NCBI GenBank assembly: GCA_035403965.1
Contig: DAONGE010000004.1
Location: 18,306 to 82,305 of the forward strand
DNA length: 64,000 bases
Source of the DNA: Candidatus Omnitrophota bacterium
Lineage (GTDB): Bacteria > Omnitrophota > Gorgyraeia > Tantalellales > Tantalellaceae
Direction: 5' to 3'
Part shown: one piece after another, positions 2,996 to 20,129 of the stretch
Layout of the letters: each line of letters begins with the position of its first letter
Numbering within the stretch: position 1 is the stretch's first letter
Notes under the pieces: model-generated
Databases searched by the model: none
What the model was told of the DNA's origin: nothing
What the model saw: the letters and a program-made list of their open reading frames with translations, nothing else
Translations under genes and position numbers: made by a program

Positions 2996-4291
2996 TTATT
3001 TAAGCCCTATGCTCTTAAAAACATCGTCTATATGCCTCATATGATAATCCAGGCAGAAACAATCCTTTATTTCTTTTTGCGTCATCAGTTTATTGATCGC
3101 CTTGTCCTTAAGAAGAACCTCATCGAAACCTTTATTTTCTCTGAAAGCCTGAAGCGACGCACCCTGCACAATATCATATGCTTCTACTCTCGTCGCTCCC
3201 TTTTTCACGAGTTCAAGCAGTATTCTCTGTGAATAGATCAAACCTTTTGTTATGCCTAGATTTTCCTTCATCTTTTCTTCGTTAACGACCAGTTTCTCGA
3301 TAAGCGTTTTCATTTTCGCAAGCATGTAATCCAAAAGTATCGTCGAATCCGGTATTATTACGCGTTCCGCGGACGAATGAGAGATGTCCCTTTCGTGCCA
3401 AAGCGCCACATTCTCCATCGCTACCATGGCGTTCCCGCGAAGAACCCTGGCAAGCCCGTCTATCCTCTCGCATATTATCGGGTTCTGTTTATGCGGCATA
3501 CTGGAAGAACCGGTCTGCCCTGTGGCGAAAAATTCCTGAACCTCCGCTATCTCGGTCTTCTGCAGCCCCCTCACTTCCAGCGCGATCTTTTCAAGCGTAG
3601 TGCCTAATAACGCGATCATGTTAAGATAAAAAGCATGTCTATCCCTCTGCAATATCTGGGAGGACACGCGTGCCGGCTTAAATCCTAATTTCTCGCACAC
3701 ATATTCCTCAACGAAAGGATCAACGTTAGCGAATGTTCCCACAGATCCGGATATCTTTCCGCACGCTATCGTTTCCCTGGCTTCCTTAAGCCGCGCGAGA
3801 CCTCTTTCCATCTCCCGGTAATAAAGGGCCATCTTCAAACCAAACGTTATCGGTTCGGCATGTACTCCGTGAGAACGGCCTATCATCGGGGTTTTCTTGT
3901 ATTTTACGGCTTTTTTCTTAAGCTCTTCCTTAACCTCTTCCGCCCCTTTTATCAGGATATCCATCGCCTCGCACATCATAACGGAAAGGGCCGTATCAAG
4001 AACATCGCTAGAAGTAAGCCCAAAATGAAAGTATTTGGCATCTTCTCCGACATATTCCGAAACATTTTTTATAAAAGCCACAACATCGTGATGCGTCTTT
4101 TCCTCTATTTCTTTGATTCTCTCAACATCGATATTGGCTTTTTCTTTTATGATTTTAAAGGATTTCTGCGGTATGATGCCTTTTTGGGCCATAGCTTCGC
4201 ATGCAAGTATTTCTATTTGAAGCATTTTTCGGAATTTGTTTTCATCCGTCCATATCCCGGCTATAACGGGACGAGAATATCTATCGATCAT
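2996..4291 (-). CDS. purB: adenylosuccinate lyase PurB
   Basis: ~431 aa fumarate-lyase family protein with the SSxMPHKxN signature (SSSMPHKQNP). Stop TAA. The track's first codon is GTG; ATG at 4291 is the likely start. Confidence 0.9.
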   Translation of the reverse strand: MIDRYSRPVIAGIWTDENKFRKMLQIEILACEAMAQKGIIPQKSFKIIKEKANIDVERIKEIEEKTHHDVVAFIKNVSEYVGEDAKYFHFGLTSSDVLDTALSVMMCEAMDILIKGAEEVKEELKKKAVKYKKTPMIGRSHGVHAEPITFGLKMALYYREMERGLARLKEARETIACGKISGSVGTFANVDPFVEEYVCEKLGFKPARVSSQILQRDRHAFYLNMIALLGTTLEKIALEVRGLQKTEIAEVQEFFATGQTGSSSMPHKQNPIICERIDGLARVLRGNAMVAMENVALWHERDISHSSAERVIIPDSTILLDYMLAKMKTLIEKLVVNEEKMKENLGITKGLIYSQRILLELVKKGATRVEAYDIVQGASLQAFRENKGFDEVLLKDKAINKLMTQKEIKDCFCLDYHMRHIDDVFKSIGLK

Positions 4292-15949: not shown

Positions 15950-16667
15950 TCTGTCATTCATTTCCGGGCAAAAACGCGCAGCTATCCCGCCCGGGGACGG
16001 CGCGAAGCGACGCAGGAGATCCGAAAGCATATCCCCGATGATTTCAAAAATAACATGTGTATTACTCGAACGATGCATATCAAAATAAAAGTCCCATTTC
16101 GAAAACCTATTACGGCTATCCGGGCTGGGCGAGTACCCTAGCAATTCGAGGCAATAGATAGAAATAAATTATGCATCGGCGCTAATCAAACGCCGGGAGT
16201 ACAAAAATAACACGAAGAATTGCGCGGAACGCAGAACGGCCCGGATAGACGGTATTTGAAGTGGGATAATTACCCGGGCGGAAACGCGCAGCAGTCCCGC
16301 CCGGGGACGGCGCGGAGCGACGCAGGTATTTTGAAAATTTATTTTCGAAATACCGAGGAGCATCGCGCATGCAAACGGTCTCAGTTATATCCCTCTTAGC
16401 CGTTTGCACTACCGCTAAAACAAAAAGCTCGATCATTTCTGTGGTTTGGACCCGGGCGGAAAACGAGCCCCGAAGGGGCGAAGTGTCCCACCCGGGGACG
16501 GCGACGTAGCTGACGCAGGATTTTTGAAAAGTTCTTTTCAAAAATCCGAGGAAGCGTAGTCGCGGGCAAACAGCTTTCTCGGGATATCACCGGGGCTGTT
16601 TGCACAACCACTAAAACAAATCGACCGGGTTTGTTCTGTCTTTCGGTACCGGGCGGAAACGCGCAGC
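15950..16667. repeat. tandem degenerate repeats derived from the tRNA-Arg trailer
   Basis: Three or more copies of a ~50-70-nt unit (CGGGCGGAAACGCGCAGCAGTCCCGCCCGGGGACGGCG...). The unit repeats the sequence immediately 3' of the tRNA. Interspersed variable-stem palindromes. Contains copy C of the hairpin element, with the motif at 16162-16199. Confidence 0.65.
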
Positions 16668-16740
16668 AGTCCCCGGGCGGATTCGAACCGCCGCACCAAG
16701 CTCCGGAGGCTTGTACTCTATCCAGCTGAGCTACGGGGAC
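16668..16740 (-). tRNA. tRNA-Arg (CCG)
   Basis: Cloverleaf with anticodon arm CAAGC-CTCCGGA-GCTTG. Resembles E. coli tRNA-Arg. No CCA encoded. Confidence 0.8.
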
Positions 16741-16806: not shown

Positions 16807-17499
16807 TTACACGCCGCGGGTCTCTACTTGTGCGGTATATTTGGAAAGTGTTTGCTTGAATTCTTCAAACTTTTCTTTACTGTATGGTTTGACATCCGCG
16901 TATTTCGGATCGAATGTATTCACTGCCCTAAATTGCTGTAAATAATATTTATCGGACATCACCAGGTTTTTCCCAATGTGCTCAAAATCCTCTGTATCCA
17001 CCACGCCCGGTACGCAGGTGGTTCTAAGTTCATAGGGGATGCCGGACTCTCTGATCACCCTAAGACTTTCTTTTATATGCCCGGCCACGTTCATCATTCC
17101 GGCTACAATACCATATTTCTCAAACGCCGTTTTTATATCCACGGCAATATAGTCCACAGCCTTATTTTGTATAAGGTTCTCCAGAGCTTTTGGATTCGAC
17201 GCGTTCGTATCAAGTTTGGTTTTATACCCCAGAGCCTTGATGCGAAGCATATATTCGGCGAGATCTTTTTGCAGAGTAGGTTCCCCGCCGCTCAGGACAA
17301 CAGCTTCGAGCATTTTTCGTCTGGCGGCGAGAAATTCCATCACTTCGTTCTCATCACATTCAAATTTTCGTTCTCTGGTCACCAGATCCCGGTTGTGACA
17401 ATATGCGCAATGGAAATTACACCCTTGAGTGAATACCACAGCGCATATATGCCCCGGATAATCAACAAGAGACAGTTTTTGCAGTCCGGCTAGTATCAT
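16807..17499 (-). CDS. nrdG: anaerobic ribonucleoside-triphosphate reductase activating protein NrdG (radical SAM)
   Basis: CNFHCAYCHN cluster. N-terminus aligns with E. coli NrdG. Lies downstream of nrdD. Confidence 0.85.
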   Translation of the reverse strand: MILAGLQKLSLVDYPGHICAVVFTQGCNFHCAYCHNRDLVTRERKFECDENEVMEFLAARRKMLEAVVLSGGEPTLQKDLAEYMLRIKALGYKTKLDTNASNPKALENLIQNKAVDYIAVDIKTAFEKYGIVAGMMNVAGHIKESLRVIRESGIPYELRTTCVPGVVDTEDFEHIGKNLVMSDKYYLQQFRAVNTFDPKYADVKPYSKEKFEEFKQTLSKYTAQVETRGV

Positions 17500-17635
17500 T
17501 GCTTTTTACCATGGCCTGAATATCGAATTTTTTCCTATCCTTGAATTCTTCCGCTTTGCCCTTGTTCCACGACTGAACCGGACGGAAAAATCCCGTTACT
17601 CTTGAAAAAACCTCTACATTGCATTTCTTTTCCAT
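17462..17635 (-). CDS. NrdD C-terminal glycyl-radical domain (57 aa), separated from nrdD by an in-frame TAA
   Basis: Translation is MEKKCNVEVFSRVTGFFRPVQSWNKGKAEEFKDR.... It matches the E. coli NrdD tail RVCGYLG..RPFNAGKQEEVKRR. It is in the same frame as nrdD, 10 sense codons after the nrdD stop. Confidence 0.6.
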   Translation of the reverse strand: MEKKCNVEVFSRVTGFFRPVQSWNKGKAEEFKDRKKFDIQAMVKSNDTSRTAKTVSC

Positions 17636-17665
17636 GCTAATCCCCCTTTTTTGTACTATTCCCCT

Positions 17666-19675
17666 TTATTTAGCATGTTCTTTCTCATACGGACATTCAA
17701 AATGTTCTCCGGGTATATACCCGTGAACCGAACAAATCGTAAACGACGGTGTTATCGTATAGTACGGCATCCGATACGTCTCAGCGATACGTCTTACCAG
17801 CTTTTTACAGACCTCTATATCCTCTATTCTTTCTCCGAGAAAAATATGAAACACTGTTCCGCCGGTATATAAGGTTTGCAATCCGTCCTGATGATCCATC
17901 GCACTGATAAGATCTTCCGTGTAGCTTACCGGCAAATTCGACGAATTCGTATAGTACGGCTCGTTCTTCCCCTGTGTAACTATGCCAGGATATCTTTCCT
18001 TGTCCATTTTGGCCAGCCTATACGAAGTTCCTTCGGCCGGAGTGGCTTCAAGATTGTAAAAATGTCCCGTTTCTTCCTGAAAATCCACCATTTTATTTCT
18101 GATATAGTTCAGAACCTCTACAGCAAACGCATTTCCTTTTTTGGATCCGATGTCATCTTTTACGAGATTGAGACACGCCTCATTTATCCCGACCACTCCT
18201 ATGGTTGAGAAATGATTGGCCCAGAACGTGCCAAACCGTTTTTTGATCCCGTCGAGATAACATTTTGAATACGGATACAAGCCCTGTTCCGTCAGCGTTT
18301 CCAGGATCTTCCTTTTTATCTCAAGGGACTCCTTTGCCACTTCCAAAAGTTCATCCAACCCTTTATAGAACGCCTCCTTGCTCCCTGCCGATAAATACGC
18401 AAGTCTTGGGATATTCAACGTTACAACCCCTATGGAGCCCGTCAAAGGATTCGATCCAAAAAGTCCGCCTCCTCTTTTCCTTAATTCCCTGTTATCAAGA
18501 CGCAGCCTGCAGCACATACTTCTGGCATCGTCAGGATTCATATCACTGTTAACAAAATTCGAAAAGTACGGGATCCCGTACTTAGCCGTCATCTCCCAAA
18601 GATATTTATGTTCAGGATTGTCCCAATCGAAGGTCTTCGTGATATTGTATGTGGGTATCGGGAAGGAAAAGATCCTCCCTTTAGCATCCCCTTCTATCAT
18701 CACTTCGCAGAAAGCTTTATTGATCATGTCGGCTTCATGCTGAAAATCCGCATAGGTCTTATCTTTCAGTTCGCCGCCGACAACAACCGCCTCATTCTTA
18801 AATGATTCCGGGATGTTAAGATCCAAGGTTATGTTTGTAAACGGTGTTTGGAATCCAACCCTAGTTGGGACATTGATATTAAAAATAAACTCCTGCATGT
18901 ACTGTTTGACCTGTTTATACTCCAGCTTATCATAATAAATGTACGGCGCGAGTAATGTGTCAAAATTCGAAAAAGCCTGGGCGCCAGCCGCTTCTCCTTG
19001 AAGCGTATAGAAAAAGTTCACTATCTGCCCAAGTGCTACCCTGAAATGCTTCGGTGGTTTGGATTCTACTTTACCATAGGCGCCTCCGAAACCACGGGCC
19101 AAAAGATCCTTTAGGTCCCAGCCGCAGCAATATGCGCTTATCGACCCGAGATCATGTATATGTATGTCTCCCTCAAGATGTCTTTCGGCTACGTTCTTCG
19201 GATAGATCCTGTCCAGCCAATAACTGTTAGATACGGCGGTCGATATAAAGTTATTAAGCCCCTGAAGCGAAAAACCCATGTTGGCGTTCTCTTTAACGCG
19301 CCAGTCCTTTTGCTGTATATAGCTGTCCACCATGTTGACAGCATCACTTAATAACTGTTTTGTCTGACGGAGTTTCGCATGTTGTTCCCTGTAAAGGATA
19401 TAGGCTTTGGCCGTTTTCGCATGCCCGTTCTCGATAAGTATCTTTTCCACCAGATCCTGAACGTTCTCAACCGTCGGGATCCGGTCTCCTTTATACATAA
19501 CCTCAAGGAAAGAAACCGTCTGCCTGGTTATATTCTGGGCCTTTTCCGGATCTTCTCCGCCTACAGCCTGTGCCGCGCAAAAAACGGCCTTCTCGATCTT
19601 GTTTGGGTCGAACTCTTCCAATCTGCCGTCCCTTTTGCGTACAAACTTAATGTCCGTCGAGTACTGTTCCGCCAT
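17666..19675 (-). CDS. nrdD: anaerobic ribonucleoside-triphosphate reductase NrdD (class III RNR), catalytic body
   Basis: 669 aa with an N-terminal ATP-cone. Class III core (CCRLRLD, GGGLFGSNPLTGSIGVVTLNIPRLA). Lacks the glycyl-radical motif at its C-terminus. Confidence 0.9.
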   Translation of the reverse strand: MAEQYSTDIKFVRKRDGRLEEFDPNKIEKAVFCAAQAVGGEDPEKAQNITRQTVSFLEVMYKGDRIPTVENVQDLVEKILIENGHAKTAKAYILYREQHAKLRQTKQLLSDAVNMVDSYIQQKDWRVKENANMGFSLQGLNNFISTAVSNSYWLDRIYPKNVAERHLEGDIHIHDLGSISAYCCGWDLKDLLARGFGGAYGKVESKPPKHFRVALGQIVNFFYTLQGEAAGAQAFSNFDTLLAPYIYYDKLEYKQVKQYMQEFIFNINVPTRVGFQTPFTNITLDLNIPESFKNEAVVVGGELKDKTYADFQHEADMINKAFCEVMIEGDAKGRIFSFPIPTYNITKTFDWDNPEHKYLWEMTAKYGIPYFSNFVNSDMNPDDARSMCCRLRLDNRELRKRGGGLFGSNPLTGSIGVVTLNIPRLAYLSAGSKEAFYKGLDELLEVAKESLEIKRKILETLTEQGLYPYSKCYLDGIKKRFGTFWANHFSTIGVVGINEACLNLVKDDIGSKKGNAFAVEVLNYIRNKMVDFQEETGHFYNLEATPAEGTSYRLAKMDKERYPGIVTQGKNEPYYTNSSNLPVSYTEDLISAMDHQDGLQTLYTGGTVFHIFLGERIEDIEVCKKLVRRIAETYRMPYYTITPSFTICSVHGYIPGEHFECPYEKEHAK

Positions 19676-19828: not shown

Positions 19829-19870
19829 CATATATTGTTGTTTGTGTCAAGACAAACACAATATATAGTT
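19829..19870. promoter_or_regulatory. NrdR-box-like palindromic operator upstream of nrdD
   Basis: ATATATTGTTGTTTGTGTC-AA-GACAAACACAATATATAG, a 19-bp near-perfect inverted repeat containing ACACAATATAT. About 155 bp upstream of the nrdD start. Confidence 0.45.
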
Positions 19871-20129
19871 AGGTCGAAAAAAGTTAGCTTTATAATTCTT
19901 GACGCTCTCTTTTTTCGTAATTTCTCATAAAACCCTCTAAAACCTGCATAAATCCTGTTAAAAAAATATTTCCCGGTCTAATTTAATTTTCTCTTTTCGC
20001 TTATTCTACCCAAATAATATTTAAAAATTAATTTTCTCTTATTTTCTGCTTTCCCTTTATCTTGTTTGAAAGTACCCTTCTGTTATTAATGATACCACAA
20101 TAGTGTCCTTATGACAAATTTACGGCCCG

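Follow-up and report, generated by a model that had tools for sequence, protein, structure and literature searches.

A putative two-polypeptide anaerobic ribonucleotide reductase in Candidatus Omnitrophota, with its glycyl-radical loop encoded by a separate small gene

RESULTS AND DISCUSSION

Two reading frames in place of one nrdD gene

We analyzed a 64-kb stretch of DNA from a Candidatus Omnitrophota bacterium (contig DAONGE010000004.1; the whole stretch is called the window below), in which nrdD, the gene for the class III (anaerobic) ribonucleotide reductase (RNR), is found in two pieces, with the glycyl-radical loop on a small open reading frame (ORF) of its own just ahead of the activase gene nrdG. 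All three genes are on the minus strand. The nrdD ORF (19675-17666) encodes a large, catalytic subunit of 669 amino acids (aa) and ends with a TAA stop at 17668-17666. The original prediction had described ten sense codons after this stop and then a 57-codon ORF in the same frame, and we confirmed this layout: the ten codons (17665-17636) read RGIVQKRGIS, an ATG at 17635-17633 starts the small ORF (17462-17635), the encoded peptide begins with MEKKCNVEVFSRVTGFFRPVQSWNKGKAEEF, and a TGA stop follows at 17464-17462. The 30-nucleotide (nt) spacer between the two genes (17636-17665) contains a Shine-Dalgarno (SD) sequence, AAGGGGGA, at 17648-17641, 6 nt 5′ of the small-subunit ATG. The nrdG gene (16807-17499) encodes a radical-SAM activase of 230 aa of the NrdG2 type (TIGR02495, 211.7 bits; cut-off, 131), and its ATG lies 38 nt within the small ORF, about the last 13 codons of which are shared with nrdG. 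The SD sequence, the 38-nt overlap with nrdG, and the accidental nature of the shared frame (see below) were all absent from the original prediction. An Rfam scan of the junction returned no RNA element, its sole match being a tRNA-Arg downstream of nrdG.

The two ORFs add up to one NrdD

The large ORF matched positions 4 to 649 of the 684 positions in the NCBIfam profile PRK08270 (NF006126; 1040.6 bits; cut-off, 548), and the small ORF matched positions 646 to 683. In the same way, the Pfam NRDD profile (PF13597) was covered from 1 to 525 by the large ORF and from 526 to 562, its last position, by the small one. The two ORFs thus adjoin along the NrdD profiles with no part missing, a fit that is far beyond chance. 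The large ORF has the ATP-cone (Pfam, 83.8 bits) and the NRDD barrel (612 bits) expected of a class III NrdD, and it also scored 533 with TIGR02487 (cut-off, 326). Its finger loop, S-M-C-C-R-L, is at residues 386 to 391 (Cys388, 18514-18512; Cys389, 18511-18509), with M387, C388, C389, and R390 invariant in the large-subunit alignment (A3). Finger-loop motifs fall into the MGCR and MCCR classes, the latter being the double-cysteine class (PMC9669993).

Among Pfam families, the small ORF matched only NRDD (PF13597) at E ≤ 0.01, and its NCBIfam matches were all NrdD models. As had been predicted, it carries the glycyl-radical motif, RVTG15F, followed by a WNKGKxEEF tail. Alignment of 26 small proteins showed 21 invariant positions, among them Cys5 (17623-17621) and the radical glycine, Gly15 (17593-17591); the invariant residues include C5, V7-F10, R12-F16, R18-Q21, W23, N24, G26, K27, E30, F31, and R34. 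No RVxG[FY] loop was found on the large ORF itself, and the NrdD domain set is complete only with both ORFs. The gene for a cognate radical-SAM activase, NrdG, overlaps the small ORF. In all tested features but one, a radical loop on the same chain, the system is thus a class III RNR.

The split is found throughout Omnitrophota

We compared one genome per species, which gave 29 Omnitrophota loci with an NrdD 74 to 84% identical to that of the window and, with the window, 30 junctions. Relatives that all have an uninterrupted nrdD would have refuted the original prediction, and the opposite was found, nrdD being split at 29 of the 30 junctions. The ATG of the small ORF overlapped the TGA of the large gene as ATGA at 22 junctions, placing the small ORF in another frame. 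At the remaining eight, a spacer of 16 to 71 nt put the small ORF in frame 0, +1, or +2, and additional in-frame stops were found at some of them (L009, L012, L018, and L029). TGA ended the large gene in 22 cases, TAA in 5, and TAG in 3, and the small ORF started with ATG in all 30. An SD core of at least 4 nt preceded it at 29 junctions, and one of at least 6 nt at 19, compared with 1.4% of background positions. The frame shared by the two ORFs in the window is therefore an accident, since in most relatives the frames of the two ORFs differ. No scheme of readthrough or frameshifting suits all of the junctions, but separate or coupled translation does, which makes separate translation the only consistent parse. 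Around the break, the large subunits end in tails of 4 to 25 variable residues, and the small subunits begin with a leader of 3 to 5 residues.

The sole fused nrdD among the Omnitrophota loci, that of L017, falls inside the split clade as the sister of the split genome L021 (100% bootstrap). Relative to L021, it has a single additional A in GAACAAACAAG (L017, 4960-5060), about 30 nt upstream of an ATGA that is retained, and it is either a secondary refusion or a consensus error of a metagenome-assembled genome (MAG). The tree, a neighbor-joining tree computed in numpy with 200 bootstrap replicates, supports both the monophyly of the Omnitrophota sequences and the secondary status of the fused L017. 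Judged from these sequences, the split is older than the Omnitrophota radiation.

The small ORF is evidently under strong purifying selection. In its 33-codon core (30 sequences), nonsynonymous divergence (pN) was 0.083 and synonymous divergence (pS) 0.898; the resulting ratio of about 0.09 indicates a tighter constraint than in the 70 neighboring codons of the large subunit (pN, 0.20; pS, 0.80; ratio, 0.25). The N terminus of nrdG was found 38 nt inside the small ORF at 29 of the 30 junctions by tblastn, with an ATG there in 26. The conservation of the small-protein tail (...SRxxKTV[SA][CG]) is probably due to this NrdG N terminus (MILAGLQKLSLVDYPG), read in another frame, so that the apparent conservation of about the last 13 residues of the small protein may be imposed by the conserved start of NrdG.

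A few of the loci showed peculiarities of their own. The large subunit of L020 has a C-terminal extension of about 70 aa that is of low complexity and rich in Ala, Gly, Pro, and Ser (3646-3856), and that of Omnitrophus magneticus (L009, 4990-5047) has an additional CNSC motif in its tail, ahead of a 71-nt spacer. The small ORF of L023 (2200-2463) extends to 87 codons into nrdG, whereas the nearly identical L024 has a normal one of 60; the long form is probably a frameshift or an assembly error in a short contig.

Standalone radical subunits in other bacteria and archaea

A search of 1.84 billion cluster representatives with a profile of the small protein gave 4,035 matches. About 134 of the best 150 (50%-identity representatives) were proteins of less than 110 aa that start with Met, and none of these best 150 had the full zinc motif upstream, which means that the small matches are not pieces of fused genes. 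Standalone homologs of the Omnitrophota peptide numbered 280 (48 to 76 aa). A second small family of 522 matches, with the pattern M-x-x-CGEKTEVYSRV[CT]GYFRPV..., was found in Victivallaceae, other Lentisphaerota, and Thermoguttaceae; the two families together range from about 43 to 83 aa.

In Lentisphaerota and Thermoguttaceae, the small gene starts 29 to 212 nt downstream of the large one, with the gap reaching 104 to 212 nt in Lentisphaerota. The best 120 homologs of the Victivallaceae large subunit were all of 652 to 681 aa, i.e., truncated. Lentisphaerota bacterium ZTH, which has a complete 3.2-Mb genome (CP119760.1; L071, 3001-5366), encodes a large subunit of 666 aa and, after a 212-nt gap, a small one of 50 aa, with no nrdG adjacent to the split nrdD; this organism may be a tractable one for experiments. 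In Thermoguttaceae-type contigs, a small gene that the gene finder did not call lies about 170 nt 3′ of the truncated nrdD (L052, 4001-4177; L053, 2953-3129), and a 92%-identical copy was found alone between ymdB-like and GATase1-like genes (L068, 5151-5270). Genomes of this type may have two copies of the small gene, if the contigs concerned belong to one genome.

The nrdD genes of five DPANN archaea (L033, L036, L037, L040, and L041) are split at the same site, and they add two further junction types. Their junctions read TAGATG, TAGtATG, TGAtATG, a 15-nt spacer, and ATGA. Three of the five retain the full CPxC zinc motif in the large subunit, and the differing positions of the break relative to CPxC suggest several origins of the split. 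The deep nodes of the tree, which bear on whether the Omnitrophota, DPANN-A, and DPANN-B forms share one origin, had only 25 to 47% support. The large ORFs of L036, L037, L038, L041, and L033 have 816 to 1,246 codons, compared with about 680 elsewhere, owing to in-frame insertions of 0.4 to 1.7 kb that are probably inteins.

Phage copies of the small gene

Of 80 nrdD loci of this clade on phage contigs (L073-L152), 54 were fused, 17 were split, and 8 were truncated with no small gene within 1.5 kb. The small subunits of the split phage loci have roughly 35 to 90 residues, with N-terminal leaders of varied length. In a recurring type (e.g., L130, 3208-3500; L132; L135), a small subunit of about 85 aa starts with MLSEFEKAVLKNN, and the position of its Cys toggles between CEVY and VECY.

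Twelve IMG/VR contigs, among them L056/L153, L057/L154, L058/L155, L062/L158, and L065/L161, carried a standalone small gene, and at 10 of the 12 loci the encoded protein shared 65 to 82% identity with the Omnitrophota peptide. These orphan genes (48 to 113 aa) have SD-like sequences upstream, and they adjoin phage genes encoding the terminase large subunit (phrog_675, E = 9e-106), tape-measure and virion proteins, the terminase small subunit, or RusA and endolysin. Neither the NrdD barrel nor NrdG was found around any of the 12 in flanks of up to 10 kb per side (11 to 20 kb in total for six contigs and 3 to 5 kb for the rest). This arrangement points to a peptide able to function in trans with the large subunit of a host, and such a copy looks like a spare radical subunit analogous to Y06I of phage T4. 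Three phage small proteins (L061, 3342-3620; L066, 3-191; L067, 2817-3158) have an N-terminal CxxC...CxxC zinc ribbon of their own and would, by their sequences, be complete standalone glycyl-radical domains, extending beyond the loop alone.

The break falls at the zinc site

The chain is broken after the zinc ribbon and before the strand that enters the radical loop. Fused relatives, which were found in Epulonipiscium, Bacilli, Peregrinibacteria, Saccharibacteria, and one nanoarchaeon (Nanoarchaeota), show the ancestral pattern C-x2-[HC]...CPxC-x2-5-EV[YW][ST]R[IV][VT]G[FY], with CPxC in five of five. The large subunit encoded in the window has Cys648 (17734-17732), His651 (17725-17723), and Cys661-Pro (17695-17690) at this site, and no fourth Cys. 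The fourth Cys was likewise missing from all 120 PVC-type large subunits (CP-x-[E/D/A]) and from all 29 split Omnitrophota ones (CP[YH]-x), and the split large subunits of DPANN-A and phages retain CPxC. A Cys stands 1 to 8 residues ahead of the EV[FY]SR strand in 353 of 364 standalone small proteins, and the PVC-type peptide starts exactly with the CG of the ancestral CPxCG. A large subunit without the fourth Cys and a small protein with a Cys near the strand suggest that the small subunit donates the fourth ligand. We give an even chance to a shared zinc site, in which Cys5 of the small subunit would complete the site formed by C648, H651, and C661 and tether the peptide to the large subunit.

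Other explanations of the split

The two pieces are conserved, under selection, and separately translatable, and together they make up one NrdD. The original prediction had listed, without ranking them, a separate radical-carrying subunit, stop codon readthrough, a pseudogenizing mutation, and a sequencing or assembly error; the conserved split and the selection on the small ORF strongly support the first of these. Before turning to how such a subunit might work, we weigh the alternatives, including one that the original prediction did not consider.

The small protein could be an optional spare part like GrcA, in which case a full-length NrdD would be encoded elsewhere, the small protein would rescue that enzyme after its cleavage by oxygen, and the truncated large gene would be a dependent second copy. 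Spare parts of this kind exist for pyruvate formate-lyase (PFL) in Escherichia coli and phage T4 (PMC8683613), and the orphan small genes in phages, the second locus on Thermoguttaceae-type contigs, and the fact that 64 kb of the genome was examined are all compatible with such a role. However, the large subunit encoded next to the small protein lacks a radical domain, and for this subunit the small protein is obligatory. The large gene is truncated in the best 120 Lentisphaerota and Planctomycetota homologs as well as in 29 of the 30 Omnitrophota, our searches turned up no full-length paralog, no second nrdD was found within the 64-kb window, and the conserved ATGA coupling argues for coproduction of the two chains at a 1:1 ratio. 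We thus consider an optional spare improbable, and the small peptide is likely to be an obligate subunit.

Recoding, by readthrough in the window or by −1 frameshifting at the ATGA junctions, might instead yield a functional fused NrdD, with the small ORF being incidental. The two ORFs of the window are indeed in frame, at an ATGA overlap the small ORF is in the −1 frame and would be fused to the large one by a −1 slip, and the fused L017, if its sequence is real, shows that a linker is tolerated. Even so, no single mechanism would serve junctions that span frames 0, +1, and +2, three stop codons, spacers of up to 71 nt, and extra stops, let alone the gaps of 104 to 212 nt in Lentisphaerota. 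An ATG occurs at every junction, with an SD core before it at 29 of the 30 in Omnitrophota, and the small copies in phages and Thermoguttaceae stand alone, far from any large gene. With 22 of the 30 junctions in another frame, readthrough as first suggested does not hold, and recoding in general is very improbable.

There is next to no likelihood that a recent nonsense mutation inactivated nrdD and left the small ORF as a decaying remnant. A stop that comes too early, ahead of an essential domain, is what one classically sees in a pseudogene, but synonymous sites have reached saturation (pS, 0.90) with the small core still at a pN of 0.083 and 21 residues invariant, the split goes back beyond the Omnitrophota radiation, the score of the large gene is that of a full equivalog, and the overlapping nrdG is intact. 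Neither a dN/dS ratio near 1 in the small ORF nor frequent frameshifts in the relatives were observed.

A sequencing or assembly error, with a true gene of about 737 uninterrupted codons and an artifactual TAA, would account for two ORFs in one frame with a single stop between them and for the fused L017 MAG, but its probability is negligible: a 400-nt junction including the TAA was identical in three independent assemblies from different samples (JGI 3300010352, ENA ERZ27257423, and JGI 3300009694), 29 species-level relatives have differing junction sequences and frames with a conserved SD and ATG before the small ORF, and L017 is the exception, nested in the split clade and set apart by one base. 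The exact 57-aa protein was found on 11 contigs.

Two further candidates were rejected. A reassigned genetic code, which the original prediction had rightly thought unlikely, is at odds with all three stops terminating long ORFs in the window (TAA, 14; TGA, 10; TAG, 2) and occurring at the junctions of the relatives; the code is therefore standard. A split intein, an intron, or a homing endonuclease does not fit a junction of −4 to 71 nt that is not conserved and contains no such sequence.

A model for a two-polypeptide enzyme

We hold with high confidence that the split is real, functional, and separately translated, and nearly as firmly that the packed nrdD-large/nrdD-small/nrdG operon encodes a genuine two-polypeptide class III RNR, both on the grounds of comparative sequence analysis. 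According to the model, the large subunit contributes the ATP-cone and the catalytic barrel, along with the MCCR finger loop and the greater part of the C-terminal zinc site. The small subunit would be translated from its own ribosome-binding site, coupled in most relatives through the ATGA stop/start overlap, and would provide the β-hairpin loop with the radical glycine Gly15 (RVTGF). In NrdD, PFL, and GrcA, the activase abstracts a hydrogen from the glycine, and the loop enters the barrel next to the finger-loop cysteines. By the same route, NrdG would install the glycyl radical on the small subunit by hydrogen abstraction from Gly15, the loop would dock in the barrel of the large subunit beside the finger-loop cysteines, and catalysis would proceed as in a single-chain NrdD.

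Oxygen cleaves the chain at the radical glycine (PMC13450708). A detached loop might ease activation, and it might also confine oxygen damage to a cheap 57-residue peptide that the cell or a phage can replace. Phages with the small gene alone fit this idea of an exchangeable radical cartridge. In its full form, the model proposes an obligate, consumable cartridge of about 6 kDa that is radicalized by NrdG, clipped on through the shared zinc site, and replaced after cleavage by oxygen; it would have arisen in Omnitrophota and, by separate evolution, in Lentisphaerota, Planctomycetota, DPANN archaea, and phages, with phages carrying the cartridge gene alone to sustain deoxynucleoside triphosphate (dNTP) synthesis in the host. 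We offer this full form as a possibility with slightly less than an even chance of being right, and the rationale of oxygen repair in itself is more tentative.

Several points weigh against the model. With regard to the zinc site, His658, which is invariant in split large subunits and variable in fused ones, could complete the site within the large subunit, as could the Glu or Asp found at the position of the fourth ligand in 116 of the 120 PVC-type sequences. The Omnitrophota Cys is at −3, whereas the canonical position is −5, and the split forms that keep CPxC (DPANN and phage) conserve a Cys at −1/+1, which may point to another role of this residue. The advantage in repair or turnover is one that we purely infer. 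Finally, the two ORFs of the window share a frame with one TAA between them, so that a minor readthrough product may be made, and a second, full-length nrdD may exist outside the 64-kb window.

Relation to known systems

Glycyl radical enzymes (GREs) are defined as single chains with the radical in a C-terminal domain. The canonical systems of a single-chain NrdD with NrdG, such as those of phage T4, E. coli, Thermotoga maritima, and Prevotella copri (PDB 1H78, 4COI/4U3E, and 8P23), have the same summed domain content as the two subunits described here, i.e., the ATP-cone, the barrel, the MCCR motif, the zinc-ribbon region, the RVxG[FY] loop, and an adjacent radical-SAM activase. The solved NrdD structures are all single chains, whereas here the radical loop is on a chain of its own of 57 aa, the break is at the fourth zinc ligand, and that Cys has been lost. 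In the searchable literature, which covers few papers from subscription journals, we came across no NrdD whose radical loop is encoded separately.

The closest likeness is to the spare parts of PFL, GrcA/YfiD of E. coli and Y06I of phage T4, which are also small standalone proteins with a glycyl-radical loop, and a phage version exists in both cases (PMC8683613). GrcA acts in trans on a large barrel and is radicalized by the cognate radical-SAM activase, as we propose for the small subunit. However, GrcA is a homolog of the PFL C terminus, whereas the small peptide matches only the NRDD family and shows no PFL-type Gly_radical homology (IPR011140, PF01228). GrcA is also optional, PFL having its own radical domain, whereas here the adjacent large subunit and all of its close homologs have none. 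By analogy, the small peptide would work like GrcA while standing outside the GrcA family. Reviews state that formate lyases are the only enzymes with known spare-part radical proteins (PMC13450708, PMC8683613), and whether other GREs have them has been left open explicitly (PMC8683613, PMC13450708).

Other RNRs are also encoded in pieces. In the split class II enzyme NrdJa/NrdJb, a second consecutive gene likewise carries a C-terminal zinc-finger module, with the barrel in the first (PMC9669993, PMC3653736). NrdJb differs in belonging to another RNR class with another chemistry and in having a re-reducing cysteine pair and an IscU-like domain, whereas the piece split off here bears the radical cofactor. 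The nrdA gene of Aeromonas phage Aeh1 and the phage nrdD genes broken by introns or inteins are further cases of RNR pieces that are translated separately and reassemble into an active enzyme (PMC3045599, PMC3653736). Those breaks are due to mobile elements (the homing endonuclease gene mobE, introns, and inteins), whereas none is found at the junction here and the split is ancient and phylum-wide.

In class I RNRs, the stable radical is on a small subunit apart from the catalytic one, the β subunit being a ferritin-like metalloprotein from which the radical is transferred over a long range. The likeness to these α and β subunits is one of function only, without homology, and here a short loop would insert directly into the barrel.

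By comparative genomics, an essential GRE, the anaerobic RNR, thus appears as an obligate two-piece enzyme in a whole phylum and in several unrelated lineages. If this is true, a spare-part or detachable radical subunit would for the first time be known from an enzyme other than the formate lyases. Were it confirmed biochemically, the peptide would be a natural, soluble activase substrate of 57 residues, with which to ask how a buried glycine reaches the radical-SAM enzyme. If confirmed, the system would also be a test case for the repair of oxygen damage in strict anaerobes and ultra-small symbionts, and the small gene would represent a new class of phage auxiliary gene. Some caution in annotation is also warranted, as the small ORF often goes uncalled or is labeled hypothetical, and the truncated large gene might be mistaken for a pseudogene.

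Other features of the locus

Upstream of nrdD, on the minus strand, we found a candidate operon promoter (TTGACA, an 18-nt spacer, and AAAAAT; 19821-19792) and an NrdR-box-like palindrome, ACACAATATATAGTTA, with two mismatches (19856-19871), both of them tentative matches to a consensus. The number of NrdR-box-like matches expected by chance in the window is 0.64, and the one that was found lies 5′ of nrdD. By position only, and not being statistically significant alone, these matches suggest a sigma-70-like promoter and an NrdR box upstream of nrdD. A second, weaker NrdR half-site is near the palindrome. On the other side of the locus, a tRNA-Arg(CCG) gene (16668-16740) comes immediately after nrdG, and three or four degenerate partial copies of the 3′ part of tRNA-Arg, beginning with CCGGGCGGAAACGCGCAGCAGTCCC, are spaced about 180 to 375 nt apart in the region of 15950-16740; these may have been left behind by serial integrations at the tRNA gene.

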